Positions 48,912 to 64,000 of a stretch of DNA of 64,000 bases are shown piece by piece. Where the stretch lies: contig CAIQON010000108.1 of assembly GCA_903873475.1 (NCBI GenBank), forward strand, positions 1,064 through 65,063. Reading direction: 5' to 3'. Both the position numbers and the translations under genes were made by a program. A model generated the notes under the pieces. The model had not been told where the DNA came from, did no database searches, and saw only the letters and a list, made by a program, of their open reading frames with translations. Numbering within the stretch: the stretch's first letter is position 1; every line of letters starts with the position of its first letter. The DNA is from an uncultured bacterium (GTDB lineage: Bacteria > Pseudomonadota > Gammaproteobacteria > Burkholderiales > CAIKXV01).

Positions 48912-50294
<1,383 letters not shown>

Positions 50295-50316
50295 GGTCAG
50301 GGCTTCGGCCTGATCA

Positions 50317-50853
50317 TCAGGATGCCCTCACCCGGAACAGCACCTGTCCATACTCGACCAGGGCGGCATCCTGCACGCAGATCTCGGTGATCACGCCGGC
50401 AAGACCCGCATGCACGGCGTTGAACATCTTCATCGCCTCGACCAGCCCGACCGTGCTCTCCGGGCCGACCGTCGAACCGATCGACACATACGGGGCAGCG
50501 CCCGGCTCCGACTGCGAGTAGAAGCGGCCGATCATCGGCGACACGATGGCGACCGTGCCGTCGTCGGGCCGTGCGGCAGCGGCAGCAGCCGGGGTGGCCG
50601 TCGCGGGCGCCGGGGAGGACCCGGCAGCCGCTGCAGGCGGTGCTGCAGCAACGCTCGACACGATGGCCGGCGGCGGCGCGCTGGCCACGGCCGCTGCAGC
50701 CGGCGCAAGGCCTTGTCCACCCTTTGCCAGCGTGAGCTTCAGGTCCCCGAACTCGAGTTGCAGGTAATCGAACGTCGAGGCGTTCAGGGTTTCGATGAGG
50801 CGGCTGATCTGCCGGACTTCGTCTTCGCTCAGCGGTACGTCTTGTTCGGCCAC
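50317..50853 (-). CDS. Biotin carboxyl carrier protein
   Basis: Ala/Pro-rich linker and the biotinylation motif VEAMKMFN (Lys codon 50428-50430). GTG start after AGGAG. Confidence 0.85.
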   Translation of the reverse strand: MAEQDVPLSEDEVRQISRLIETLNASTFDYLQLEFGDLKLTLAKGGQGLAPAAAAVASAPPPAIVSSVAAAPPAAAAGSSPAPATATPAAAAAARPDDGTVAIVSPMIGRFYSQSEPGAAPYVSIGSTVGPESTVGLVEAMKMFNAVHAGLAGVITEICVQDAALVEYGQVLFRVRAS

Positions 50854-50880
50854 GCGATTGCTCCTGGAGTTCGGTTCATG

Positions 50881-51573
50881 TCACTGCTGCAGCTTCGCGC
50901 CGTTGGCGGCCGTCTCCGGCACTTCCATCTCGCGGAAGTCCGGCGCCACGATCAGCACCGCTTCCGTCTTCGCCTGCACCGCCGCAGGATCGAATCCGGG
51001 CATCGCCTCGCGCAGCACCAGTCCGTCAGCGGTGACGTCGACGATCGCGATATCGGTGTAGATGCGCTTCACGCAGCGACGGGCGGTCAGCGGCGCGGTG
51101 CACGTCTTCACGATCTTCGGCTTGCCCTTGTTCGTGACATGGGACATCGCGATCAGGATGTTGGGGGCGCCGACCGCGAGATCCATTGCGCCGCCCACGC
51201 CGGGCACGGCTTCGCCCGGCACCTTCCAGTTGGCGAAGTCGCCGTTCTGCGCCACCTCGATCGCACCCAGCACCGCGTGGGTCAGGTGGCCACCGCGCAT
51301 CATCGCGAACGAGATCTGCTGGTCGAAGATCGCGGCGCCGAGCGCCAGGGTGCAGAAGCCCTTGCCTGCGCTGATCAGGTCGAGGTCGATGTCGTCGCCC
51401 TTCGGCACGGGGCCGACGCCCAGGATGCCGTTCTCGCTGTGGAGAAAGATCTCCTGGGTGCGGTCGAGGTAGTTCGAGACCAGCACCGGGATGCCGACGC
51501 CGAGGTTCACGTAGGCGCCTTCGTGCAGGTCGCGCGCGATGCGCCAGGCGATGCCGTCACGGGTGAGGATCAT
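50881..51573 (-). CDS. 3-oxoacid CoA-transferase subunit B
   Basis: ...GAYVNLGVGIP...LHSENGILG...GGAMDL.... ATGA overlap with subunit A. Confidence 0.9.
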   Translation of the reverse strand: MILTRDGIAWRIARDLHEGAYVNLGVGIPVLVSNYLDRTQEIFLHSENGILGVGPVPKGDDIDLDLISAGKGFCTLALGAAIFDQQISFAMMRGGHLTHAVLGAIEVAQNGDFANWKVPGEAVPGVGGAMDLAVGAPNILIAMSHVTNKGKPKIVKTCTAPLTARRCVKRIYTDIAIVDVTADGLVLREAMPGFDPAAVQAKTEAVLIVAPDFREMEVPETAANGAKLQQ

Positions 51574-52274
51574 GAATGGCCTCCCGGTTTTGGCAGCTTG
51601 ATCAGTTCGGGGTGGCGTTCGACCTGTACGACATGGTCGACGAAGATGCCGGGGGTGTGCACGTGTTCGGGATGGATCTCGCCTGCCGGCACGATGCGAT
51701 CGACTTCCGCGATCACCGTATCGCAGGCCGTGGCCATCACCATGTTGAAGTTGCGCATCGTGCCGCGATACATCAGGTTGCCGAAGCGGTCGCCGAGGTG
51801 GCCCTTGAGCAGCGCGAAGTCCGCGCGCAGCGCCTTCGCGAACAGATACTCGCGCCCGTCGATCTCGCGCACTTCGCCGCCCTCCGCGAGTTCGGTGCCC
51901 ACGCCGGTCGGGGTGTAGAAGCCGCCCAGGCCGCAGCCGCCGCAACGGATGCGCTCCACCAGCGTCCCCTGCGGCACGAGTTCGAGTGCGACCTCGCCCT
52001 TGAGGTAGCGCTCACGGAACTGCGCAGCCGACGGCGCGGGAAAAGAGGCGATCAGCTTGCGCGCGAGCCCGTCGCCAAACAGCGATCCGAGCGCGAACGG
52101 GCCGGTACCGGCGCCATTGCTCACGATGGTGAGATCGCGCGCACCGTGTTCGCGCAGGGCCTCGATCAGTTGCCCGGGCATGCCGGCATTGCCGAAGCCG
52201 CCGAACATGATCGTCGCGCCGTCGAACACCTTCTCTACGGCCTCCCTGCACGTGGAGAGCGTCTTGTCGATCAA
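51570..52274 (-). CDS. 3-oxoacid CoA-transferase subunit A
   Basis: ...DGATIMFGGFGNAGMPGQLIEAL...LTIVSNGAG...ELVPQGTLVERIR.... TTG start at 52274 preceded by GGAGGA (no in-frame ATG near the conserved N-terminus). Confidence 0.85.
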   Translation of the reverse strand: MIDKTLSTCREAVEKVFDGATIMFGGFGNAGMPGQLIEALREHGARDLTIVSNGAGTGPFALGSLFGDGLARKLIASFPAPSAAQFRERYLKGEVALELVPQGTLVERIRCGGCGLGGFYTPTGVGTELAEGGEVREIDGREYLFAKALRADFALLKGHLGDRFGNLMYRGTMRNFNMVMATACDTVIAEVDRIVPAGEIHPEHVHTPGIFVDHVVQVERHPELIKLPKPGGHS

Positions 52275-52317
52275 CCCTGTCCTCCGATCCCGGTGGTGTT
52301 GCGCTGGCGGAACATGC

Positions 52318-52347
52318 TTGACAAGAACCGCGCGCGATGCCGAATAT
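52318..52347 (+). promoter_or_regulatory. Candidate sigma70-type promoter in the divergent intergenic region
   Basis: TTGACA (52318-52323), 18-nt spacer, GAATAT (52342-52347), about 150 nt upstream of the Bug ATG at 52496. Pattern match only. Confidence 0.25.
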
Positions 52348-52495
52348 GCCACCGACCGCGTGCTGCATTCGTGCCGATTGCTGCCGAAGCCCGAGTTTGC
52401 CATCTTCGGGCCATCGGGTGATTGCCTCGCGGGAAATTCGTGATCACAGCAGGTTGCGTCTCCGCCGCCGCATGCAGGTCCATCCGAGGGCTACC

Positions 52496-53540
52496 ATGAA
52501 CATCGATCGCACCGGTTCAATCGTTCCCAGCCATCCAGGCCGGGCCCGGGACGGGTTCCCGCAGCGCACGCTCGCCCTGGCAGCCAGCCTCGCGACCGGC
52601 CTGGCGCTGACCATGGCTGCACCGGACGGCATCGCCCAGGGCGCAGCCGCATACCCGGTGAAGCCAGTCACGCTGATCCTCCCCTACGCACCGGGCGGCA
52701 CCATCGACATCCAGGGACGCCTGCTCGCATCCGGCCTCAGCGCCCGCCTCGGCCAATCCTTCATCGCCCGCAACATGCCGGGTGCCACCGGCGCGATCGC
52801 GACCGAGTACGTGGCGCGATCGGCACCGGACGGCTATACGCTGCTGTTCGGCTCGTCCGCACAGACCACCAGCGTGCCGATGACCGACAAGGTCAACTAC
52901 CGACTGGAGGATCTGGTGCCGGTCAGCGCGTCTGGCCGGGGCGCGATGGTACTCGCCATCAGCTCGCAACTGCCGTCGAAGACGCTCAAGGAGTTCATCG
53001 AACACGCGCGCGCGGTGCCGGGCAAGCTCAACTACGGCTCCCCGGGCGAAGGCTCCGTCGGCCACCTGGTTGCTGCGCTGTTCGTCGCGCGCGCAGGACT
53101 CAGCGTCGTGCACGTGCCGTACAAGGGCGGTGGTCCGGCGATGGCCGACCTGCTGGGCGGCCAGATTCCCATGCTCTTCGGAAACTCCGGCGAAGTCATG
53201 GCGAACGCCAAGAGCGACCGTATCCGCATCATCGCGGTGTCGACCGCTCAGCGCATGCGGCAACTGCCCAACATCCCGACCGTCGCCGAGTTCCTGCCGG
53301 GTTTCGAGATGACCGCATGGCAGGGGTACGCTCGCACCGGCGCGCACGCCGCGCGCGATCGTGGAAACGCTGTCGAACGCCATCCAGGCGCTGTCGAAGG
53401 AACCGGCCGTGATCGAACGCCTGGAACAGTTCGGAGTCGAATCGACCACGACCACGCCCGAACAGATGGCGGCGATCATCCGCGCCGAGCAACCGGTGTA
53501 CGCGGAAGCCGTGAAAGCGGCCGGCCTGGGCGGCCGCTGA
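52496..53540 (+). pseudogene. Bug/TctC-family gene with a +1 frame change at 53324-53330 (G4 run)
   Basis: The frame gives ...AYPVKPVTLILPYAPGGTID...FEMTAWQG, then junk. The +1 frame continues with TLAPARTPRAIVETLSNAIQALSKEPAVIERLEQFGVESTTTTPEQMAAIIRAEQPVYAEAVKAAGLGGR and stops at 53538-53540. Confidence 0.7.
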
Positions 53541-53597
53541 TGCCGCGTGTCGGCGGCTGCGAAGGGATGGAGGCGCTGCTTCGGCTGCTGCCAGCCG

Positions 53598-53634
53598 GGG
53601 CGCTGGCGCACGCAAACGGCACAGGCCAGCGCCC
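53598..53634. terminator. GC hairpin between convergent genes
   Basis: GGGCGCTGGC (53598-53607) / GCCAGCGCCC (53625-53634), a 10-bp stem with a 17-nt loop. It abuts the stop of the minus-strand kinase gene. No U-tract. Confidence 0.3.
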
Positions 53635-54246
53635 TCAAGCGCGAGCCGAAAGCGCCTTCACCACCTGCCGGGCCACGACCTCCGGGCCGGCGAGCCCGTC
53701 CACCACGATATCGGCGCCGGGCCGGACCCTTTCCCGCTGCACCCGAAGCAGCGCCTCCACGCCTTCCAGATAGTTCGCCAGGTACTCGCGCAGCCACGGT
53801 GCCAACGACGCCGGTGGCCCGTCGAATGTCGCCACCAGCTGCCGAACCTTGCGTGCGAGCGCGATATCGAGCGGTGTGTCGATCCATACCAGGGTGTCGA
53901 TGTACCGACCGGACTCGGCGTGCCATCGGCCGAAGGGCGTCTCGAAGATCACGTGTTGGCGCGGCGCGAGCTGCGCTCCCGTGAGCGGGTCCTGCACGGC
54001 ATGGCCCGCCTTCAGTCGGGCCAGCGCCTGCGAAAGTCCAGGCACGCGCAGCCGCTCGGGATCGGCGCCCGACAGCATCCAGTCGCAGGCCTCGGCAAGC
54101 GGCCGCTCGGTCATCTCCTCGAAGTGATCGAACGCGAGTACGTCGCGCTCGCCGAGCGCCTGCGCCAGCGCCTGCACCAGCGTGGACTTTCCGCCGCCCA
54201 CACCCGAGGCAACCGCGATCACCCGACGCGCTGCAATGTCACTCAC
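53635..54246 (-). CDS. P-loop kinase (uridine kinase/PRK-like NTPase)
   Basis: Walker A VIAVASGVGGGKST and later ...DTLVWIDTPLDIALARKV.... GTG at 54246 overlaps the upstream stop by 8 nt; the upstream part of the track ORF is Arg/Ser-rich and unlikely to be coding. Confidence 0.6.
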   Translation of the reverse strand: MSDIAARRVIAVASGVGGGKSTLVQALAQALGERDVLAFDHFEEMTERPLAEACDWMLSGADPERLRVPGLSQALARLKAGHAVQDPLTGAQLAPRQHVIFETPFGRWHAESGRYIDTLVWIDTPLDIALARKVRQLVATFDGPPASLAPWLREYLANYLEGVEALLRVQRERVRPGADIVVDGLAGPEVVARQVVKALSARA

Positions 54247-55033
54247 GTGCGGCACCGGCGCCGTCGAGGTAGAACGTCGCGAACGCCGCCCCACTTCGGC
54301 TGCGACCGCCCGAGACATGCCCGAGGCAGGCCTCCCGTGCCCCGCCGTAGAAACCGTCGAATGCGGCCGGCGGCACGCGGAAGTACGACAGGAGCCCCCG
54401 CAACTGCGGCTCGACATCGCGCAGATGGAGACCGGACGGATGGACGTTGAGGTCGAAGGACGCGCGCGGGTTGCCGTCCTCGCAGACCTCGAGATACATC
54501 AGCGGCTCCGGGCTGCGCGCCGCAGCCAGCGCCGCCACATCCATCAACAGGGCCGCCCCGCGCGCGTCGCAGAGTCGGCCGATGCGTTCCCCTATCGCTG
54601 CGGCGTTCACGCCGGGCAGATAGCGATAGCGCGCAATGGCCTGGCGACCGGGATCCGCCGGAGACCACTTCCACGCCAGATGCAGCAGGACCGGGCCGGT
54701 CGCCAAGTCGATGCGCCTCGCATACTCCAGATAGACCTTGAACAGCAGGCCATCGGGGCCTGCCTCGTAACCGAAGTGCACGATATCGGCCTGCAGCGCA
54801 TGCCGCTCGAACGCCGTACGTTCGGCATCCGGGAACCCGATCGCCCGAAAGACAGCACTCAACCAGGCGGTATCGACGACCGCCAGGGAAATCCCCGCCA
54901 GCAGACGCTCGCCGATCAGTTGGCCGGGCGCCAGCTTGAAGGATCGCTCCACTCCCTGCAGCGGCGCCGCGCGCAGGAACTCGATCAGCGGCGCGGTGCC
55001 GACCGGAACTACCGCTGGAAGCGTACCGTGCAC
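54239..55033 (-). CDS. Hypothetical protein (264 aa), repeated beta-hairpin-like segments
   Basis: Good GC3 coding signal. Recurrent strand-turn-strand-like segments (IVHFGYEAGPDGLLFKVYLEY; VLLHLAWKWSPADPGRQAIARYRYL; LMYLEVCEDGNPRASFDLNVH; LGHVSGGRSRSGAAFATFYLDG). I recognised no family. The GTG start overlaps the upstream gene by 25 nt. Confidence 0.5.
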   Translation of the reverse strand: MHGTLPAVVPVGTAPLIEFLRAAPLQGVERSFKLAPGQLIGERLLAGISLAVVDTAWLSAVFRAIGFPDAERTAFERHALQADIVHFGYEAGPDGLLFKVYLEYARRIDLATGPVLLHLAWKWSPADPGRQAIARYRYLPGVNAAAIGERIGRLCDARGAALLMDVAALAAARSPEPLMYLEVCEDGNPRASFDLNVHPSGLHLRDVEPQLRGLLSYFRVPPAAFDGFYGGAREACLGHVSGGRSRSGAAFATFYLDGAGAARE

Positions 55034-55821
55034 TTGATTCCAGCGGGGATGCGTCCTTCGGAATTCGCCAGATGCAGGCGCACGCCGAACGTGCCGCTGG
55101 CCGCGTCGACCACCCTGTCCACGACCACCACGTTCGCGCGATAGCTGCCCGGCAACTGCGAGCCGAACCGTACGTCGCCGGACATCCCCACCCGGATCCG
55201 CCCGAGCAGTTCCACCGGCGCAATCACCTCGACGTTGAGCGGGTCGATCCGCGCGATCTTGACGATCCTGCCATCACCCACGCGCTCGCCCGGCGCGAGC
55301 ATGCGCTCCACCACCACGCCGTTCACGGGGCTGCGGATGGTCCTCTGCTCGAGCACCTGGCGCTGCTGTGCGAGTTCGAGGCCGGCGAGGCGCATCTGGG
55401 TCTCGAGCTCATCCCTTTCGCTGGCGGAAATGAGCTGATTCTTGAACAGTTCCTCGCTGCGCTCCACCCTGCGCCTGGCGAACTCCTCCTGTGCGGTCTT
55501 GAGCCGGACGCTGGCCTCTTCAACCTTCGAGTGAAGCCGCGCGATCTCCTGGCCCTGGGTGACCACGCTGCCCCGCTCGACCAGCACCTCGTGCAGCGTA
55601 CCCTCCACCGGGCTGCCCAGGCTGGTGATCAGGCTGGGCTCGACCATGCACTCCATGGCATCGCCCAGCTGGCGACCGGTGTTCCCGCTCAGCGCAGGGA
55701 GCCGTGCCGGGAGTGCCGGCGCCTCGAGTCGCAGGGGCATGCCGCCCGGCGGCGGCGTCTGCGCGAACGCTGCGCCAACCGACAGCGCAACGATCAGCAG
55801 ATACGGAAGGGGTTGGACCAT
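55009..55821 (-). CDS. Short secreted membrane-fusion protein (HlyD/RND-adaptor-like)
   Basis: Signal peptide MVQPLPYLLIVALSVGAAFA. Lipoyl-like hairpin ...GTLHEVLVERGSVVTQGQEIARL..., coiled coil, ...IRSPVNGVVVERML.PGE... and a beta-barrel tail. ATG at 55821 after GGAG. Confidence 0.7.
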   Translation of the reverse strand: MVQPLPYLLIVALSVGAAFAQTPPPGGMPLRLEAPALPARLPALSGNTGRQLGDAMECMVEPSLITSLGSPVEGTLHEVLVERGSVVTQGQEIARLHSKVEEASVRLKTAQEEFARRRVERSEELFKNQLISASERDELETQMRLAGLELAQQRQVLEQRTIRSPVNGVVVERMLAPGERVGDGRIVKIARIDPLNVEVIAPVELLGRIRVGMSGDVRFGSQLPGSYRANVVVVDRVVDAASGTFGVRLHLANSEGRIPAGIKCTVRFQR

Positions 55822-55859
55822 GCTGGATACTCCACGAAAAGAGGCCGTGCCCGGACTGA

Positions 55860-57851
55860 TCATTCCGGCTGGCCGGTAAAGGACAGGATTGTCTTCGCCT
55901 GCCGGTCCGCCTGCAGCAACTGGCGGCGCACCTTCGAGTGCATGCCCTCCGTGCGCCGCTGGGCGAAGCGGATCCAGGCTCGCCGCAGCAGCTGCCCGAC
56001 ATCCGAGCGTTCGGGCACGCACCGGACCAGCCATTCCACGGGCCCGCCACGATAGGGTTCCAACAGTGGATCCTCCATCGACAGCACAGCCTCGAAATGA
56101 CCGGCGTCTCCCTGGCGCGAGCAGCGCCCCGCCAGCTGCCGGTCGATGCGACCCGCCTCGTGGCGCTCCGAGAGGATGATATGCAGCCCGCCGCTGTCGC
56201 CCACCCCCGGCGCAAGCTTGATGTCCGTACCCCGCCCCGCCATGTTCGTGGCTATGGTAATGCAGCCCGGCTCTCCCGCGCGGGCGACGATCGCCGCCTC
56301 CTCTTCATCCTGCTTCGCGTTGAGTACCTGGTGGGCGAGGCCCCTCTCGGCGAGCAGCGCACTGGCCCGCTCAGAAGACGCCACCGAGCGCGTTCCGAGC
56401 AGCACCGGCACACGGCTGGCATGCAGTACGGCGACCCGCTCCGCGATCTGGCGCCACTTCGCATCCTCGGTCTCGAGGACACGATCGGCACGCCGGACCC
56501 GCCTGCTCGGGCGATGCGTGGGCACGCGTACGACCGGCAGGTTGTAGACCGATCCGAGTTCGCCGGCCACCTCCGCCGCGGTGCCCGTCATTCCGCCCAG
56601 GTGAAGGTAGCGGCGGAAGAAGCGCTGGTAACTGATGCGTGCCAGGGATTCCTTGCGCGGCGTGATCTCCACGCCCTCCTTGGACTCGATCAGCTGGTGC
56701 AGCCCCTGGCTCCAGGACCGATCGGCCATGACCCGACCGGTGTGCTCGTCGACGACCTGGATCTTGCCCTCCCGGATCACGTAATGATCGTCCAGCAGGA
56801 ACAGATGCAGCGCAGAGAGCGCTTGCCTGACCAGTTCCTCGCGCCTCAGCGCGCCAGCCCATACGCCACCCATCGCCTTGCACAGGTCGATCACCCGTCC
56901 GTGTCCCGCTTCGGTAAGGGCGATCCGACGCTCGGACTTGAGGATGACGAAATGCTCGCCAGGGGAGAGCTGGCGCGCGATCCCGAGCGCCTGAGTCGCG
57001 ACGAGCGCCTCATCGGCGGCGGGAACCTCCGCTGAAATGATCAGCGGCGTGCGCGCCTCGTCGACCAGCACGCTGTCGGCTTCGTCGACGATGGCGAAGT
57101 GCAGTCCCTGCAACAGCAGCTTGCGGCGCCTCGCATGCTCGCCATAGGCCTTGTCGAGCTGCAGGTGAAGCGGATAGCCTCCCTTGGCCAGCATGAGCCG
57201 GTCGCGCAGGTAGTCGAACACCAGCGTCTTGTTGCTGCAGTAGACGACGTCGTGCGCGTACGCGGCGCGGCGCGCGTCGGGGTTCATCTCGATCGTCACG
57301 TATGCAACCCGGATACCCAGCACCTCGTAGAGCGGGCGCAGTGTCTTGAAATCGCGCTCGACCAGGTAATCGTTCACCGTGATGACATGGACCGGGATGC
57401 CCGCCAGGGCAGCGGTGCAGGCAGCCAGCGTGGCCGTCAGGGTCTTGCCCTCGCCGGTCTGCATCTCGGCCACCATGCCGTTGAGCATGATCCAGGCGCC
57501 CCTGAGCTGGACGTCGAAATGACGCATGCCGAGCGTCTGATCTGCCGCCTCCCGTACCAGGGCGAACGCACATGCGGCAAGCGCCTCGGTGAGACCCTCC
57601 CGCCGCAGGCGCAACCGGAGCTCACGCGCCTCGGCCGCCAACTGGACCGGATCGTGGTGACGATAGCGGTCACCCACTGCGGCGACCTTCGCAACGATAC
57701 GGTTCCCGCCTGCTGCGCGCGCACGCAGCGCCCGCAGGACACGGCCGGTAGCCGCCTTTCCGGTACGGTCGAGCCAGGTCTCGTCGGTCGCATCAGGCCG
57801 CTCCGGATAGACGTCGTCGAGCAGCGGTGCAGGGATCACGAGGCGCGCCAT
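55860..57851 (-). CDS. SecA-like ATPase, truncated (663 aa; motor domains only)
   Basis: GMRHFDVQL, Walker A MQTGEGKT (57441-57461), VHVITVNDYLVERD, DEADSVLVDEARTPLIIS, GGMTGTA, TNMAGRGTDIKL, GGLHIILSERHEAGRIDRQLAGRCSRQGDAG. The sequence ends about 70 aa after NBD2. Confidence 0.85.
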   Translation of the reverse strand: MARLVIPAPLLDDVYPERPDATDETWLDRTGKAATGRVLRALRARAAGGNRIVAKVAAVGDRYRHHDPVQLAAEARELRLRLRREGLTEALAACAFALVREAADQTLGMRHFDVQLRGAWIMLNGMVAEMQTGEGKTLTATLAACTAALAGIPVHVITVNDYLVERDFKTLRPLYEVLGIRVAYVTIEMNPDARRAAYAHDVVYCSNKTLVFDYLRDRLMLAKGGYPLHLQLDKAYGEHARRRKLLLQGLHFAIVDEADSVLVDEARTPLIISAEVPAADEALVATQALGIARQLSPGEHFVILKSERRIALTEAGHGRVIDLCKAMGGVWAGALRREELVRQALSALHLFLLDDHYVIREGKIQVVDEHTGRVMADRSWSQGLHQLIESKEGVEITPRKESLARISYQRFFRRYLHLGGMTGTAAEVAGELGSVYNLPVVRVPTHRPSRRVRRADRVLETEDAKWRQIAERVAVLHASRVPVLLGTRSVASSERASALLAERGLAHQVLNAKQDEEEAAIVARAGEPGCITIATNMAGRGTDIKLAPGVGDSGGLHIILSERHEAGRIDRQLAGRCSRQGDAGHFEAVLSMEDPLLEPYRGGPVEWLVRCVPERSDVGQLLRRAWIRFAQRRTEGMHSKVRRQLLQADRQAKTILSFTGQPE

Positions 57852-57860
57852 CGGATTCGC

Positions 57861-60011
57861 TCAGACGTTGAATTGCTTGAGGAACGCGCGCCTTAACGCT
57901 CGATACCACTGGGTCGCCAGCGGCTCCGGCAGGTGTTCGAACCGCACATGGATCCGACCGCCCAGGTAATTGGTCTGCTCGCCCCGCGGCAGTTCCAGGT
58001 CGAGCACGAACAGTTTCTCGAGTGCGCGTCCATCGTCGCCCTTCGTCGGGTCCAGCCCGATCTTGCCACCGCCCTGGAGACTCAGTGCGAGGCTGGGTAG
58101 CTCGTTGGTCGCAGCAGGGACCTCGCGCGCGATGCGCGCTTCGAACGGCTGGCCGATCCGCTCCACCGGACGGATCTCCACTCGCCGGGTACGCGTGGCG
58201 ACCTGCGCGCCTTCCGCCGCCGACACCACGACACGTACGGTCTTCGCCGTGCGATCGACCACGTGGGCAAGCAACTCGCCGCGCTGGACGTACCGGCCCG
58301 GCAGGTTGTCCGGATCCTGCATCACGAAAACACCGCTGGTTGGCGCGCGGATGAGCAGTTCCGCCTGCCGGCGGCGCGCCTGCCTGAGTGCTTCGCGCAC
58401 GTGCTCGCGCTGCTCGTCGATCAGTTCCACCTGCACCCGATTGCTCACGCGCGCCAGCTGATGACGCGCATCCAGTTCCGCGAGTTGCGCCTGCAGAACG
58501 CGGGTACGGGCTTCCAATTCCGGATCATGGCACTCGATCAGTGGCTGTCCTGCGACGACCGGTTGCTCCGGCTTCACCAGGACACGTCCGACCACGCCGT
58601 CGATCGCGGCGCGCACATGCGCCTGCTCCGGAGCCCAGATCACCCCTTCCGCGCGTGTCGATGAAGGCGCGGGCACCCATGCCACGATGCCCACGATGCC
58701 TGCCAGCATCACGCCGGTGACGAACAGCGCTCGCGGGCGCTTGCCGGCGATCCGGGGGTTGAAGAAAAGATAGTGGATCTTCTTGCCGATCGGGATGACC
58801 AGCATGCTTGCGACCGCCCAGAGCGCGAGCACGACCCCGATAAAGAAGAACTGCGTTGCGACCAGCACGGCGATCGAAACCATCATGCCGATGCGGTAGA
58901 AGAAGGAAAGCACCGCATAGCCGGCGAGCCAGCCTCGCTCGGCGTCCGTCTCCGCAGGCGATGCGTCCCCCTGCACGCCGAACAGGTAGCGGCGAACAAG
59001 GTAGCCGAGATAGTCGTTGGCACGCTGGCCGAGGTTGGGCGATTCGATCCAGTCGGCCAGGATGTAATAGCCGTCGAACCGCAGCAGCGGGTTCGCGTTG
59101 AACAGGATCGTGGTGATGCCCGCGATCAGGATGATGTTATAGATGACCGCCCGGGTAAATCCGGGTTCGAGATTGATCCAGACGAACACCGCCAGCGATG
59201 CGAGGAACAGCTCCACCAGCATGCCTGCCGCGCCCACGAGCATTCGACTCCGCTTGTCGCGGAAGGCCGTGGCAGCCGAGGCATCGACGTACGGGATGGG
59301 GACCAGCACCAGCAGCATGACGCCCATCTCGTGCACTTCCCCACCGCCCGCCTTGATGGCCACCGCATGGCCCAGTTCGTGCAGCAGCTTGATCAGCGGG
59401 AAGACGACCCAGGCGAGCAGCAGGTTCTCCAGGGTGAACACGCGATCGACGACATCGCTAGACAGTTCCTTCCAGTGCATTCCCACCAGGATCGCCGCGC
59501 TGGTCGCAACCGCGAGCCAGAGCAGGGCTCCAGGCCAGCCCATGAGCGGCCGCAGGAACGGCATCGCCCGGTCCAGGAACCGGTCCGGATCAACCAGCGG
59601 GAACCGGATCGACAGCGGATTGCCGACGTACTGCTTGAGCTTCGTGCGCCGGTGCCGCAGCCGGCGCTCCTCGCGTTCCCGCGCATCCGGAGACGCGTCG
59701 CCCTGCAGCGCATCGGCTGCGTGCAGGTCGGACATCAGCTTGATGACCTCGTCCTGCGACGGCGCCGCCTCACCGAGCCGGGCGCAGGCGATGTTCCAGA
59801 TGTCCTGGAGCGTACGCTGGCCATCCATCAGCCCGATGACCAGGTTGGCGACCGGCGTGAACCGATGGAACTTGCCGGTCGAGTGATTCTGCATCACGTA
59901 CCACACCGCCTGGCGATAGACATGACGGTGGATCTGCGCATGACTGCGCAACCGCGGCCTGAGCGTCGCCACGCGATACCAGGAATCGCTGAACAGGGAT
60001 ATCGACTGCAT
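57861..60011 (-). CDS. Three-part fusion: PqqD/RRE-like N-domain, M50 (site-2 protease-like) membrane metalloprotease, C-terminal HlyD-like domain
   Basis: HELGH at 59367-59381 and NANPLLRFDGYY (the second S2P motif) within multiple hydrophobic spans. N-terminal ...WYVMQNHSTGKFHRFTPVANLVIGLMDGQRTLQDIWNIA...QDEVIKLMSDLHAADAL is PqqD-like. The C-terminus carries ...IDGVVGRVLVKPEQPVVAGQPLIE... plus coiled-coil HlyD features. Confidence 0.8.
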   Translation of the reverse strand: MQSISLFSDSWYRVATLRPRLRSHAQIHRHVYRQAVWYVMQNHSTGKFHRFTPVANLVIGLMDGQRTLQDIWNIACARLGEAAPSQDEVIKLMSDLHAADALQGDASPDAREREERRLRHRRTKLKQYVGNPLSIRFPLVDPDRFLDRAMPFLRPLMGWPGALLWLAVATSAAILVGMHWKELSSDVVDRVFTLENLLLAWVVFPLIKLLHELGHAVAIKAGGGEVHEMGVMLLVLVPIPYVDASAATAFRDKRSRMLVGAAGMLVELFLASLAVFVWINLEPGFTRAVIYNIILIAGITTILFNANPLLRFDGYYILADWIESPNLGQRANDYLGYLVRRYLFGVQGDASPAETDAERGWLAGYAVLSFFYRIGMMVSIAVLVATQFFFIGVVLALWAVASMLVIPIGKKIHYLFFNPRIAGKRPRALFVTGVMLAGIVGIVAWVPAPSSTRAEGVIWAPEQAHVRAAIDGVVGRVLVKPEQPVVAGQPLIECHDPELEARTRVLQAQLAELDARHQLARVSNRVQVELIDEQREHVREALRQARRRQAELLIRAPTSGVFVMQDPDNLPGRYVQRGELLAHVVDRTAKTVRVVVSAAEGAQVATRTRRVEIRPVERIGQPFEARIAREVPAATNELPSLALSLQGGGKIGLDPTKGDDGRALEKLFVLDLELPRGEQTNYLGGRIHVRFEHLPEPLATQWYRALRRAFLKQFNV

Positions 60012-60024
60012 GGCTATGCGCGCT

Positions 60025-61866
60025 TCACGCCCAGGACCACACGGCCAGACGCAGCCAGTCGAAGAACCGGTGGGTGATCATCCAGAACAGGCTGCGCCGT
60101 CCTGCCTCGATCTTCGCCACGCCCTCCATCCCGGGTCGCAGCCGATCGGAACGCTGCTCGAGCAGCGCCTCCACGCGGAAATAGCTCCGGCCTTCCCGCG
60201 AGGTCACCACGGGCGTCACGGTGCTGATGACAAACGGATACACCTCCCCGGGCAGCGAGCTGAGCAGCAACCGTCCCTTCTGCCCGGCACGCACATTGCC
60301 GATCGCGGTCTCCGGCACTTCGAGCACGACGCGGTAGCCGTCGAGCGGCGACACCTCGAAAAGCACCTGGCCGCGCTTGACCGCCGCGCCGAGCGACTGG
60401 TGCAGGTCGCCGCTGACCACGACGCCGTGGAATGGCGAGACGATATGCGTGCGCTGCAGTTGCTCCGCGAGCAGGCTGACCTGCGCCTCGGCTTGCTGTA
60501 CCTGCGCGAGGATGATGCTGGCCAGCGCGCGGTCATACTTGGCAACCGCCTCCTGGTACTGGCGCGTGTATTGAGTGCGCTGGCTCTGCCATTTGTAGTA
60601 TTCGAGCCGCAGGTCCCGCTGATCCAGCGTCGCGAGCACGTTGCCCGCTTTCACGACGTCCCCCGCGCGATGCGTCGCAGTTGCCACGTAGCCATCGATC
60701 GGTGCGATGAGCACGCGGCGCACCGAGCCCTCGAGGGATGCCTGCGCGCCTACCCGGTGGTTGCCGGTTGCCAGGCTGAAGAACACGACCAGTGCGATCA
60801 GCGAAAGGGCCACGAGCTTGCGTCCGAAATACTTCGGCCCGATGAGCTTCGTGAGTTGCTCTCGGGAAGCGTCCCGGAAACGGCTCAGGAAGTGTCTGTC
60901 GTTGAGGCGTTTGGCCTCGAGGATGCGGCTGGTCAGCGCCACCGTCGCCTGGCAGAGCTCGATGGTGGACGCATCGAACGGTCGACTGGCGGGACGCTCG
61001 AGGGTGAAGGCCCCACCGCGTCGCTCGTCCGGCTGGAACGGAATCGTGAGGATGCTGCCGCTGCCGAACTGGCGGGCAAGCGCATCGTGGTCGCGCGTGA
61101 CCAGCGGCGCGCCCGTACCTGCAGGCACGACGATGATCGATCTCTGGTCCAGTGCCTCATCCATCGCCATTCCGATGGCGCGGGTAAGGTTCATCCTCTG
61201 GCCGAATTCCGCGCTGTGCGAGACCGCGGCAACGTCCACATGGCCATTCTTCTGGAACCCGATGCTGACCCGGTCGCAATCGAGCCGTACTGCCAGGTCC
61301 GTCGCGAGCGCGTTCGCCGCCGCCGGGAAACGCTCCTCCGCGAGCGAGGTGGCCAGCAGGTCCAGCGTACTCATCAGCCTTTCGCGCGTCGCCTGTTCTT
61401 CCTCCGACTGAGCGGCTCGCAGCGATGCTTCGATCGCGTAAAGCGCCCAGGACAAGCGCGGCACGAGCGCCTGCACCGCGGCCGCCTCCCGAGGCTCGAA
61501 CTCGACGGCCACGAGACCGTGCAACTGGCCATCGATCATCAGCGGACAACTCACGCATGCGCCGTCCGGACGGGACGATACGATGCTGCGGCGTCCTTCG
61601 AGCGTACGCGTGGCGACATCGGCCAGCAGCTCGCTCGGCCCCTGGCCCGCCGGCCAGAACGCCGCGGGCGAGAACGGGCCTGCGTCAGGGGCGCCCAGGA
61701 GCAGTACCGCGCGCCGAGCCTCGGGCAGCGAGGCACAGCACGACGCGAGCCAGTCGCGCTGGAACGCTTCGGGACTGGCGCCGGGTGCCGTGGCCTGCAT
61801 CCCGGTCGCGGTGCTCGCGGTGACGGTCTCGGTCATGGCACGCGGACCGCCCGGCTCAACGGTCAA
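60025..61866 (-). CDS. Cytoplasmic GAF-like region, single TM span, periplasmic HlyD-type membrane-fusion domain
   Basis: TM span LVALSLIALVVFFSLA. Downstream ...IDGYVATATHRAGDVVKAGNVLATLD..., coiled coil, ...IVSPFHGVV... (HlyD). The ~330-aa N-terminal part has two GAF-like blocks (...PLMIDGQLHGLVAVEF...; ...SILTIPFQPDERRGGAFTLER...). TTG start overlaps the upstream stop (TTGA); alternative ATG at 61836. Confidence 0.7.
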   Translation of the reverse strand: MTVEPGGPRAMTETVTASTATGMQATAPGASPEAFQRDWLASCCASLPEARRAVLLLGAPDAGPFSPAAFWPAGQGPSELLADVATRTLEGRRSIVSSRPDGACVSCPLMIDGQLHGLVAVEFEPREAAAVQALVPRLSWALYAIEASLRAAQSEEEQATRERLMSTLDLLATSLAEERFPAAANALATDLAVRLDCDRVSIGFQKNGHVDVAAVSHSAEFGQRMNLTRAIGMAMDEALDQRSIIVVPAGTGAPLVTRDHDALARQFGSGSILTIPFQPDERRGGAFTLERPASRPFDASTIELCQATVALTSRILEAKRLNDRHFLSRFRDASREQLTKLIGPKYFGRKLVALSLIALVVFFSLATGNHRVGAQASLEGSVRRVLIAPIDGYVATATHRAGDVVKAGNVLATLDQRDLRLEYYKWQSQRTQYTRQYQEAVAKYDRALASIILAQVQQAEAQVSLLAEQLQRTHIVSPFHGVVVSGDLHQSLGAAVKRGQVLFEVSPLDGYRVVLEVPETAIGNVRAGQKGRLLLSSLPGEVYPFVISTVTPVVTSREGRSYFRVEALLEQRSDRLRPGMEGVAKIEAGRRSLFWMITHRFFDWLRLAVWSWA

Positions 61867-62213
61867 GCATCCGTCTTCAATTCACCGAAACGGGACTCAT
61901 ACTCCTTGAGTACCCGCTCCAGGAGAACGCCGAGGCGCTTGGCCGCATGGGGATTGAGTACGATCCGGTCGGACAGCATGACCTTGACTTCTTTCTGACC
62001 TGCGTGCCACGCCTGATTCGCCCCGAACAGCAGAGTGATTTCCTCGCGCGATCCAAGGACATTGCAGACGTTGGAATAGGAGGTCTCCATTCGCGAATCG
62101 TCCCAGATGATTCGCTGAGGATCGCCGCTGCGCGTATTCGTGTCCGGGGTATTGTCTTCGCCGCTCGCTGAGACACTCGCTGAGGGAGTCCTGCTCATCG
62201 CGATTCCTGTCAT
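61863..62213 (-). CDS. Small DUF3467-like protein
   Basis: ...ETSYSNVCNVLGSREEITLLFG... resembles the YxN..v..t.eEf.LdFG core I recall for DUF3467. Visibly more A/T-rich than its surroundings. Start ATG at 62213 or 62198. Confidence 0.5.
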   Translation of the reverse strand: MTGIAMSRTPSASVSASGEDNTPDTNTRSGDPQRIIWDDSRMETSYSNVCNVLGSREEITLLFGANQAWHAGQKEVKVMLSDRIVLNPHAAKRLGVLLERVLKEYESRFGELKTDA

Positions 62214-62347: not shown

Positions 62348-64000
62348 TCAGCCCGCACGCGGGTCTTTGGCCCAGTCGATGCGCGGGGAGGCCTGCAGCG
62401 CGTGCCGGATGTCCACGGTATCGACGGTGACCGGCAAGCCTCTGGTTCCGTCCATCCAATGGCCCGCGGTCGATTCGATGGCGCCCGGCGCAAGCCCGGG
62501 CGCAGCCATCCCGGGACGGACTTGCCGACGGCGCTCCAGCATGACACGGCCGTCAGCCGTGAACCAGACACCCTTGCTGCCCGCGCCAAGCACTTGCGCT
62601 CCCAACAGCCCGGCGAGCGCGAGTTCATGCGACTGCTCATCCCGCACCGGAGCCACCTCTCGCCCGACGCTCGACCAGTCGACACGCACGGCCGGGCCGG
62701 ATTCCGGCAGTGAACGCAAGAAGGCTGCAATCTCGGCGGATTCTGTCAGTGCCGCGGCGTCGGCTGGCGACGGGCTGCCAGCTGCCTCGCCGGCCGGTTG
62801 CTGCACGCCCCCCTCGGGTGGCACCCCGCCCGGCGGCGACGACGACGGCGACGGCGGCGGAGTCGTGGGTGCCTGGTCCGGTCCCATGGTGGACGCGGCC
62901 GGAGGCGCACTGTCCGCGCCGAACCGTGGCGCATCGGAGAACTGGAAGCCGAGGATCGTGGGCATCACCGCCGTCGATGACCCGTCAGTCGCATACAGGC
63001 GGCGCGTATCGCTCGCCGCGTCTCCGATCAGGATGTCGGCCGGTCGAGAGACGTTGGGCATTTCCCGGACGATGTTCTCGACGCGCTCGATGAACTCATC
63101 TTCGTTCGAATCCGCGGGCAGGTCGGCACCCGCCCCGTGGAAACGGATCACCTGCTCCACGCGGCTATCGGGCTTGAAGTACACCACCAGATAGTCGCCG
63201 GCCATGATGTCGAAATCCAGGTTCCCGTACAGCAGGTCGTCGTCAGGACCGCCGATGACCACGTTGTAGCCACCGCCCCCCGACACGACATCCTGAGAGC
63301 CGATGGTCATGTCGATGGACTCGACCTGGGACGGACGCGCACCGGTCGGGAAGTAGAACACACGGCCGCTGTCGCCGATGACCAGGTCATCATCGCCTTC
63401 GCCCCAGAGACGATCGCTTTCGTAGCCACCGATCAGGATGTCGTTGCCGTCGCCTGCGAACACCACGTCGCGGCCGCCCAGTCGCGGGAAGGACGACGAG
63501 ACGAGCTGCGGGTCTCCGGACACGCCATTGAAGGTCGCAAACGCATTGTCACCGACGATCACGTCGCGCCCTGCACCGGTGACGACCGAATCGTCGCCCA
63601 TGCCACCGAAGACGAGCGAATCGCCGCCGGCGGCGCTGATACGATCGTCTCCGCCGTACCCGATCTCGGTGGTCTCCACGAACTGGAGGATGCCCGACCC
63701 GCTGTAGTCGAGGAAGCCGTTGTCGGCCAGCACGACGTGCGTTCCCGTGCCCAGGCGCACCTCGTCGCTTCCGATACCGGCGACGACGGTCTTCGAGCCA
63801 TCGCCCGCGACGATGATGTCGTCACCACCCTCGAGCCTCACCGTGCTGGTGATGGCATCGAGGAAGCGGCCAGTCGGATCCCGCAGGATGATGCCGTTGT
63901 CGCCGAGGATCACATCGGATCCGCTGGAGGTCGTGACGCGATCGGCACCCATGCCCGTGGCGATCAGGTTTTCACCGTTCCCGGCGAAAACGATGTCATC
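62348..64000 (-). CDS. Large repeat protein, RTX/Ca-binding-like Gly-Asp repeats, Pro-rich linker and C-terminal domain; 5' end outside window
   Basis: The frame is open to nt 64000 (...DDIVFAGNGENLIATG precedes the track Met). Many degenerate G-x-G-x-D/GDD-I-x-G units (GGDDIIVAGDGSKTVVAGIGSDEV..., GGMGDDSVVTGAGRDVIVGDN..., GDGNDILIGGYESDRLWGEGDDDLVIGD...). PTTPPPSPSSSPPGGVPPEGG linker, then a ~170-aa non-repeat tail. Confidence 0.7.
   Translation of the reverse strand, partial: DDIVFAGNGENLIATGMGADRVTTSSGSDVILGDNGIILRDPTGRFLDAITSTVRLEGGDDIIVAGDGSKTVVAGIGSDEVRLGTGTHVVLADNGFLDYSGSGILQFVETTEIGYGGDDRISAAGGDSLVFGGMGDDSVVTGAGRDVIVGDNAFATFNGVSGDPQLVSSSFPRLGGRDVVFAGDGNDILIGGYESDRLWGEGDDDLVIGDSGRVFYFPTGARPSQVESIDMTIGSQDVVSGGGGYNVVIGGPDDDLLYGNLDFDIMAGDYLVVYFKPDSRVEQVIRFHGAGADLPADSNEDEFIERVENIVREMPNVSRPADILIGDAASDTRRLYATDGSSTAVMPTILGFQFSDAPRFGADSAPPAASTMGPDQAPTTPPPSPSSSPPGGVPPEGGVQQPAGEAAGSPSPADAAALTESAEIAAFLRSLPESGPAVRVDWSSVGREVAPVRDEQSHELALAGLLGAQVLGAGSKGVWFTADGRVMLERRRQVRPGMAAPGLAPGAIESTAGHWMDGTRGLPVTVDTVDIRHALQASPRIDWAKDPRAG

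Follow-up and report, generated by a model that had tools for sequence, protein, structure and literature searches.

How bacteria transport proteins of at least 10,000 residues across two membranes is largely unexplained, and many giant genes are without an identified exporter. The locus described here comes from a 64,000-nt stretch of DNA of an uncultured burkholderial bacterium (contig CAIQON010000108.1; the whole stretch is referred to as the window). It encodes a SecA-like ATPase of only 663 aa (55860-57851, minus strand), which lies in an operon together with HlyD-type adaptors, a membrane protein of the site-2 protease (S2P) kind and the end of a large repeat protein. Judged by its domains and its neighbours, this short SecA is probably the motor of an exporter dedicated to giant proteins.

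With housekeeping SecA, the short SecA shares the DEAD motor made of nucleotide-binding domains 1 and 2 (NBD1 and NBD2), the preprotein cross-linking domain (PPXD), the start of the scaffold helix, all ATPase motifs and the fold of translocating SecA. It differs in lacking about 245 C-terminal residues, in having a YPER extension, an insert of ~20 aa and a C-terminal tail of its own, and in being encoded in an operon of the membrane fusion protein (MFP)/TolC type rather than with Sec genes. The E. coli SecA-N68 and DEAD-motor truncations (5K9T, 3BXZ), which comprise NBD1, PPXD and NBD2 without the C-domain, are nearly identical in domain content. Yet N68 is an engineered fragment, whereas the short SecA is natural, retains a stretch of ~35 scaffold-helix residues as well as a conserved tail, and is subject to purifying selection.

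The accessory SecA2 proteins resemble the short SecA in being specialised second paralogues for few substrates, and some of them are shortened. Known SecA2 proteins presumably work with SecYEG or SecY2, in monoderms and mycobacteria, whereas the short SecA is found in diderm hosts (Proteobacteria, Desulfobacterota and Verrucomicrobiota) beside HlyD, M50 and TolC genes. Type I secretion systems (T1SSs) for repeats-in-toxin (RTX) proteins and giant adhesins, such as HlyBD-TolC, LapBCE and SiiCDF, share with the module HlyD-type MFPs, an adjacent cargo gene and, in several clusters, TolC; the cargoes alike lack a Sec signal peptide and have RTX-like repeats towards the C-terminus. In contrast to T1SSs, the module is without an ABC transporter, its sole ATPase is SecA-like and its cargo carries an N-terminal LEPR-XLL motif. 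It also has three different adaptors, one of which is fused to S2P-like and RRE-like domains (RRE, RiPP recognition element; RiPP, ribosomally synthesised and post-translationally modified peptide) and another to a GAF domain. As energisers of tripartite systems, the abstract of a 2021 review lists only ABC, RND and MFS proteins (PMC8277102).

Giant proteins of Omnitrophota and Actinobacteria contain SecA_DEAD and PPXD domains without scaffold or wing, which were proposed to export the giant itself, and a normal SecA coexists in their genomes (bioRxiv 10.1101/2023.11.21.568195). They are the nearest published parallel, apparently an independent one, with the difference that the motor there is a domain inside the giant, beside transmembrane (TM) segments, whereas here it is a stand-alone protein of 660 aa. 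Finally, the leader machinery of RiPPs (daptide MpaP-type and YydH/LiaK) shares with a 716-aa protein of the operon an N-terminal PqqD-like domain and a membrane protease with HExxH and NxxPxxxxDG motifs. The 716-aa protein, in contrast, is fused to a periplasmic adaptor and has a protein of ~10,000 aa as its neighbour, not a short peptide. No description of the operon was found in the full-text literature searched, which leaves out most subscription journals; there, DUF3467, a further component of the operon, appeared in an unrelated context only, and LEPR-XLL in passing mentions only.

Domain content and conservation of the short SecA

The gene of the short SecA is an open reading frame (ORF) of 663 codons from ATG to stop, whose G+C pattern at third codon positions (GC3) is that of a real gene in a window of 68% G+C overall; it is also the one SecA-like ORF of the window. 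The original prediction, made by eye from the sequence, had described a SecA homologue of this length with all motor motifs intact, giving no strand; the ORF is on the minus strand, and every quoted motif was found in its translation: GMRHFDVQL, MQTGEGKT, VNDYLVERD, DEADSVLVDEARTPLIIS, GGMTGTA, TNMAGRGTD and RIDRQLAGRCSRQGDAG, with AQRRTEGMHSKVRRQLLQADRQAKTILSF as the tail. Pfam recognises SecA_DEAD (E=9e-98, residues 50-432), P-loop_SecA (E=2e-49) and SecA_PP_bind (E=5e-24, residues 286-389), the last of which places the PPXD inside NBD1. The wing/scaffold family SecA_SW is matched neither by the short SecA nor by its 120 best homologues.

Alignments locate the truncation. Residues 56-650 align to residues 26-601 of the 841-residue B. 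subtilis SecA (phmmer against the PDB), and residues 27-656 to residues 1 to ~655 of E. coli SecA (MAFFT). E. coli residues 656-901 have no counterpart; they comprise the rest of the helical scaffold domain (HSD), the helical wing domain (HWD), IRA1 with the two-helix finger and the C-terminal tail. If the E. coli borders are those we assume (scaffold helix 621-672, HWD 673-755, IRA1/two-helix finger 756-829, C-tail 830-901), the protein retains roughly two thirds of this long helix (~35 residues) and nothing beyond it. Removal of IRA1 deregulates the SecA ATPase. The protein is laid out as an N-terminal YPER extension, NBD1, PPXD, NBD2, the ~35 scaffold-helix residues and a tail ending in ...ILSFTGQPE, and a family-specific insert of ~20 aa separates DYLRD from the DEAD box in its NBD1. 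In the window, the C-terminal tail is encoded at 55860-55890 and the N-terminus with YPER at 57800-57851.

The structure model, built with AlphaFold2 from 42 family members (predicted local distance difference test, pLDDT, 81.5; predicted template modelling score, pTM, 0.78), ends in one long helix at model residues 616-650 (model numbering being the true position minus 1), after which ~11 disordered residues follow. The top Foldseek matches are without exception SecA structures, and the model superposes best on SecY-bound, substrate-engaged SecA (6ITC and 5EUL; TM-score 0.77-0.78, root mean square deviation 3.8-3.9 Å), with a query-based score (TMq) of 0.78 and a deviation of 3.8 Å for 6ITC. 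E. coli SecA-N68 (5K9T), the DEAD motor (3BXZ) and M. tuberculosis SecA2 (4UAQ) are matched as well.

Pfam, phmmer, MAFFT, AlphaFold2 and Foldseek thereby agree with the domain map drawn by eye, which retains NBD1, PPXD, NBD2 and the beginning of the scaffold helix. The predicted loss of HWD, two-helix finger and Zn/SecB-binding tail is likewise borne out, by the missing SecA_SW match, the unmatched E. coli residues 656-901 and a model that stops after one helix. A further remark, that the PPXD is shorter than in housekeeping SecA, needs qualification: the domain is ~25 residues shorter than that of E. coli but aligns to that of B. subtilis with small gaps alone, so that the shortening is true relative to E. 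coli only.

The NCBIfam SecA equivalog models match the short SecA over their first 490-600 positions only and remain below their cut-offs (NF009538, 576 against 814 bits; TIGR00963, 561 against 800 bits). The scores also fall far short of the cut-offs of the SecA2 models TIGR03714 (454 against 930 bits), TIGR04221 (420 against 725), TIGR04397 (505 against 1085) and NF012136 (379 against 1100).

The truncated form is the rule in its family. The 120 best database clusters show 58-98% identity, and nearly all are 650-708 aa long, most of them 659-664 aa, with three shorter members of 573-644 aa. Alpha-, Beta- and Gammaproteobacteria and Desulfobacterota have the identical stop point, with the tail (L/M)(S/A)F(S/T)G.xE, and these classes also share the (Y/H)PER extension at the N-terminus and the ~20-residue insert that separates DYLRD from the DEAD box; in the Verrucomicrobia versions the end comes slightly sooner. 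Across 42 family members, the Walker A, DEAD, TGT and arginine-finger motifs do not vary. Ratios of non-synonymous to synonymous substitution rates (dN/dS) of 0.08 and 0.13 relative to close relatives show that the short SecA is under purifying selection. Its ...ILSFTGQPE tail and N-terminal YPER are candidate docking peptides for a partner; their conservation extends over several classes, yet the model shows them as disordered or with low confidence.

In a neighbour-joining tree (644 columns), 16 short SecAs are monophyletic in 100 of 100 bootstraps against a small outgroup sample of three canonical SecAs, from E. coli, Neisseria and Priestia. Identity between short and canonical SecAs is 38-42%, compared to 59-66% among the canonical proteins themselves. 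A tblastn search of plasmids located family members on plasmids or chromids of Mesorhizobium, Rhizobium, Ensifer and Methylosinus, genera in which a chromosomal secA is present.

On a practical note, RefSeq names this family inconsistently, as 'prepilin peptidase', 'DEAD/DEAH box helicase', 'preprotein translocase subunit SecA' or 'hypothetical protein' (examples are L020:13788-15704, L031:19677-21701, L021:13755-15716, L032:19719-21704 and L033:19722-21680). 'Prepilin peptidase' is clearly the wrong name for an ATPase of the SecA fold.

A conserved module and its giant neighbours

All operon genes of the window are on the minus strand and tightly packed, and the start and stop codons of the module genes overlap or nearly abut. 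The most upstream gene (62348-64000 and past the window end, with no stop codon before that end) encodes the last 550 residues of a large RTX-like repeat protein, which its HemolysinCabind repeats (Pfam, E=6e-15) and its homologous position mark as the presumed cargo. Gly/Asp-rich Ca-binding repeats lie near its C-terminus, and the C-terminal region includes a hydrophobic LALAGLLGAQ segment and an ...IDW motif. It is followed by the gene of a 116-aa DUF3467 protein (61863-62213, minus strand; Pfam, E=1e-22), a small, cytoplasmic candidate chaperone or adaptor for the cargo.

The next gene (60025-61866, minus strand) encodes an adaptor of 613 aa, predicted to consist of a cytoplasmic N-terminal half with a GAF domain, one TM segment (residues 351-369) and a periplasmic HlyD-type adaptor (Pfam GAF, 1.4e-8; HlyD_3, 8e-20; a match to HlyD_D23; NCBIfam RND_mfp above cut-off). 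Its listed start is TTG, with an alternative ATG 10 codons downstream (Met 11). Directly before the short SecA lies the gene of the 716-aa PqqD-like/M50/HlyD fusion protein (57861-60011, minus strand), which was assigned from Pfam and NCBIfam matches, motifs, predicted TM segments, an AlphaFold2 model and Foldseek. A cytoplasmic PqqD/RRE-like domain (~residues 24-100) precedes an M50/S2P-like membrane domain of ~8 TM segments, with HELGH at 211 and NANPLLRFDG at 304-313, and a periplasmic adaptor of the HlyD/MexA type with an alpha-hairpin (~450-716), matched by Pfam HlyD_D23 and HlyD_3. The M50 catalytic residues (HExxH, NxxPxxxxDG) are invariant in 41 homologues. In Foldseek, adaptor matches dominate, the adaptor part resembling MexA, AcrA and MacA including a hairpin of the TolC-docking type; the S2P part is without an independent structural match. 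The closest named models are those of RiPP proteases, daptide_HExxH (NF041824; E=3e-43, 148 against a cut-off of 300 bits) and YydH/LiaK (NF058609; 32 against 225 bits), and RefSeq names the homologues 'PqqD family protein', 'site-2 protease family protein' or 'peptidase M50'.

Between the fusion gene and that of the short SecA lies a gap of 9 nt in the window, and an 8-nt overlap in other loci. On the other side, the ATG of a third adaptor gene (55009-55863, minus strand) overlaps the stop codon of the secA-like gene (ATGA). This protein of ~284 aa has a signal-peptide-like N-terminus (...VGAAFA/QTPPP) and matches HlyD_D23 (5e-18) and RND_mfp (108 bits, cut-off 95).

Two homologue look-ups, a scan of one genome per species (contributing 16 loci), the plasmid tblastn search and reciprocal look-ups with DUF3467 yielded 27 loci, which belong to Beta-, Gamma- and Alphaproteobacteria, Desulfobacterota/Syntrophales and Verrucomicrobiota. 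Identity to the window is 98% for L003. The GAF adaptor and the ~715-aa fusion stand beside the short SecA in each of the 27 loci with readable flanks, and the third HlyD adaptor lies downstream of it in almost all. In most loci, the fusion gene is followed directly by that of the short SecA; one to several genes intervene in a few. DUF3467 occurs between giant and adaptor genes in most loci, those without it being L007, L013, L026, L031 and L033, and for two DUF3467 homologues on Mb-size contigs the look-up returned the same module with giants. This gene order, kept over several phyla, strongly supports the original suggestion of a SecA repurposed in a non-Sec operon. A profile of the ~715-aa fusion retrieved 5,457 cluster representatives (50% identity) at E<=1e-30 among 1.84 billion, and the family is therefore large; the best 150 matches are nearly all full-length, at ~715 aa.

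TolC/OEP (outer-membrane efflux protein) genes lie within the cluster in L011, L014, L015, L018, L020 and L028, and probably also in L016, judging from an ORF in the equivalent position. No ORF combining Walker A and LSGGQ motifs was found within 10 kb in any locus or the window, no ABC exporter is annotated in the RefSeq records of the loci, and there are no secY2 or accessory Sec genes near the short SecA.

The gene directly upstream of the module in related loci encodes a giant protein of 4,468 to 15,258 aa. The longest, of 15,258 and 15,183 aa, come from metagenome-assembled genomes, and the shortest (4,468 aa) from another related locus. Giants from named genera have 9,292 aa in Actimicrobium, 8,847 aa on a Methylosinus plasmid, 10,518 aa on a Mesorhizobium ciceri plasmid, ~9,000 aa on an Ensifer adhaerens chromid, 12,918 aa in Pseudosulfitobacter, 10,603 aa in Pontibrevibacter and at least 8,148 aa in Alisedimentitalea.

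All six readable N-termini of giants carry LEPR-XLL (NCBIfam NF012209, 'LEPR-8K'), at L022:184-26727 (minus strand), L029:2983-, L030:22725-49808, L031:1-14705, L032:1-15446 and L034:1-750 (minus strand). Two of them reach 31-34 bits (cut-off 17), RefSeq gives that name to two more, one was recognised by eye and one has the motif upstream of its annotated start. The latter belongs to the Alisedimentitalea giant, whose start codon was probably mis-called, since LEPR-XLL lies in frame just upstream of it. The motif is preceded by a basic stretch of 35-60 residues, and the three cargo N-termini that were read directly (Methylosinus, Mesorhizobium and Ensifer) show no hydrophobic Sec signal. A regular expression for LEPR-XLL matched no other ORF of at least 100 aa in all loci and the window.

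At the other end, an alignment of the window cargo (62348-62900) with the giants of L001, L002, L005, L007, L009, L010, L013, L018 and L020 revealed RTX-like repeats, a hydrophobic Ala/Gly-rich segment (LALAGLLGAQ-like) and an internal W(L/F), as well as a [D/N/E]W motif no more than ~25 residues from the end in 10 of 11 cargoes. These features may constitute a second, C-terminal signal.

Several genes and arrangements accompany the module in some loci only. Downstream of it in the window are two accessory genes: that of a 264-aa protein (54239-55033, minus strand) with coding-type GC3, homologues in L002-L005, L007, L012 and L013 and no match in Pfam, and that of a P-loop protein resembling uridine kinase/PRK (53635-54417, minus strand; NCBIfam PRK08233, 5e-26 but below cut-off) with homologues downstream of the module in L001-L005 and L012. 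The start of the latter is uncertain because its ORF overlaps the 264-aa gene. A promoter and terminator scan of 53000-56200 found none. The adjoining metabolic genes at 48912-52403 (minus strand) and 52337-53773 (plus strand), for a biotin carboxylase, two CoA-transferase subunits and a TctC-type receptor, are apparently unrelated to the operon; Tct transporter and CoA-transferase genes are also near the Pseudosulfitobacter locus (L031).

In two alphaproteobacterial loci, a SapC-family gene lies between the S2P-adaptor fusion and the short SecA (L026:12858-13688 and L031:18863-19684). The 264-aa gene was considered as a divergent SapC, and no similarity was found. According to a preprint on the Chlorochromatium epibiont, sapC and tolC flank giant genes there, no ABC exporter was identified, and a 'secA' (Cag_1676) and hlyD were acquired horizontally (bioRxiv 10.64898/2026.03.19.712371). 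These genes might represent the same kind of system.

Genes for methyltransferase, radical-SAM/B12-binding and 2OG-oxygenase proteins follow the module at L001:13426-16260 and L002:14327-18640 and not elsewhere; they may encode lineage-specific enzymes that modify the cargo in these betaproteobacteria. At L027:10544-12046, an insertion sequence with a DDE transposase separates DUF3467 from the GAF adaptor, and at L014:5920-11991 the genes for adaptor, fusion and SecA each come as two separate ORFs, reflecting either decay of the module or assembly errors.

Two ideas about module components found no support. That DUF3467 is a homologue of the chaperone SecB is at most a lead: hhalign against E. 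coli SecB gave probabilities of 0.8% and 0.3%, neither phmmer nor hmmsearch found a match in the PDB, and the sole aligned piece pairs IL(N/S)P(F/Y)AAKRL with SecB ILFPYARECI. A role in anti-phage defence was dismissed, as no PADLOC family was matched by the short SecA, the fusion, the GAF adaptor or DUF3467.

Proposed mechanism and competing explanations

The short SecA is probably the motor ATPase of a dedicated, type-I-like and TolC-dependent tripartite exporter of giant proteins, in which it would replace the ABC transporter. It would drive the chain into the duct because it is the sole ATPase of the module, has kept the clamp and lost the elements that insert into SecY or regulate the coupling, and is encoded together with the parts of a tripartite duct. 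That it acts as a SecYEG-coupled translocase, which the original prediction had doubted, does seem unlikely, given that the two-helix finger is missing and that the gene lies in such a context.

In the proposed sequence of events, the giant cargo would be made without a Sec signal peptide, as an RTX-like protein in the window and a LEPR-XLL protein in the relatives. DUF3467 and the PqqD/RRE-like domain of the 716-aa fusion would bind a terminal signal of the cargo. The clamp between PPXD and NBD2 of the short SecA would hold the unfolded chain, and ATP would be used to feed it into an inner-membrane platform that may be formed by the S2P-like membrane domain together with the TM segment anchoring the GAF adaptor. 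From there, the three HlyD-type adaptors could provide a periplasmic duct to TolC, the intact M50 active site would cut off or release the signal, and the GAF domain may gate or otherwise regulate export. Physical interactions, ATP-driven threading, cleavage and transport direction are all inferred. A more extensive reading, which we put forward tentatively as a serious possibility, is that of an envelope-spanning system independent of both SecYEG and ABC proteins that would export LEPR-XLL giants of ~4,500 to 15,000 aa, with the PqqD-like domain recognising their leader and the M50 protease cutting it.

Several points weigh against these proposals. The suggested function is derived from gene neighbourhood and domain content. 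TolC is absent from the cluster in the window, and in L011, L012, L014 and L018 the upstream protein is smaller or unclear. The link to LEPR-XLL is verified for cargoes of Alphaproteobacteria, to which all six belong, and the N-terminus of the window cargo lies beyond the window. The PqqD match in the 716-aa fusion is weak (20.3 bits, cut-off 23.4) and falls in a region of low model confidence. The candidate for the membrane conduit is a site-2 protease, which is not known to form a protein channel. Finally, the RTX repeats near the C-terminus and the C-terminal motifs suggest, by analogy with T1SSs, that the C-terminus leaves first, whereas SecA and RiPP-type leaders normally engage an N-terminus. 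If export is C-first, the LEPR-XLL leader could be a handle for cytoplasmic retention or release; the N-terminal leader, the logic of an RRE joined to a protease and the polarity of SecA would argue for N-first, possibly co-translational, export.

Alternatively, the short SecA could be an accessory, SecA2-like protein that brings the giant to SecYEG, either by itself or as a heterodimer with housekeeping SecA, with adaptors and TolC taking over in a second step. The protein is a genuine homologue of SecA and possesses both PPXD and clamp; shortening is also seen in known accessory SecA2 proteins, one of which, 4UAQ of M. tuberculosis, is among the structures matched by the model. Mycobacterial SecA1 and SecA2 are reported to interact in vitro (PMC4457860). 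Against this stand the SecA2 family models, whose cut-offs all lie far above the scores reached, the three directly read cargo N-termini without a hydrophobic Sec signal and the lack of a secY2 or accessory Sec gene nearby. Moreover, IRA1 and the two-helix finger, which we take known SecA2 proteins to keep, are wholly absent from the short SecA, and the strict coupling to membrane-anchored adaptors is of the kind seen in one-step systems. We consider such a role unlikely.

Equally unlikely, in our view, is that the short SecA serves the protease rather than export as such, unfolding or threading the leader or another substrate into the M50 site and so controlling the maturation or release of the giant, while export is powered otherwise, e.g. 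by Ca2+-dependent folding outside the cell. The direct succession of the RRE-M50-HlyD gene and that of the short SecA in most loci would fit this idea, as would the invariant M50 residues, the GAF domain with its hint of regulated processing and the RTX repeats, which could supply a folding ratchet. Yet the module encodes no other source of energy for chains of ~10,000 aa, and site-2 proteases are not known to depend on ATPase partners.

Less probable still is a system for the export and maturation of RiPPs or bacteriocins, made up of RRE, M50 leader peptidase and HlyD, with the giant as no more than a frequent neighbour. The named models closest to the membrane domain are indeed the daptide and YydH/LiaK metalloproteases, and L001 and L002 have radical-SAM, methyltransferase and 2OG-oxygenase genes after the module. 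These tailoring genes are, however, not kept across loci, the scores for RiPP proteases stay below their cut-offs and no conserved small precursor ORF was seen across the loci, while the giant is the constant upstream neighbour across phyla. Lastly, although the protein is shorter than any housekeeping SecA, a decaying pseudogene, truncation or assembly artefact has a negligible chance of being the explanation and is ruled out by a length of ~660 aa in more than 100 clusters, the common end point and tail, dN/dS values of 0.08-0.13, invariant motifs and a confident structure model.

Significance of a possible SecA-driven exporter

With 5,457 representatives of its fusion protein, the system is common, and its presence on plasmids of cultured rhizobia, roseobacters and a methanotroph makes it genetically testable. 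A TolC-type exporter that works without an ABC protein would be a new variant of tripartite secretion. If the proposed role is true, SecA is not restricted to SecYEG and becomes, besides ABC, RND and MFS proteins, a fourth energiser of tripartite systems, here coupled to an intramembrane protease. Evolution would then have recruited the Sec motor twice, the second time for a different channel, and the exporter missing so far for a large class of giant proteins in bacteria would be found.

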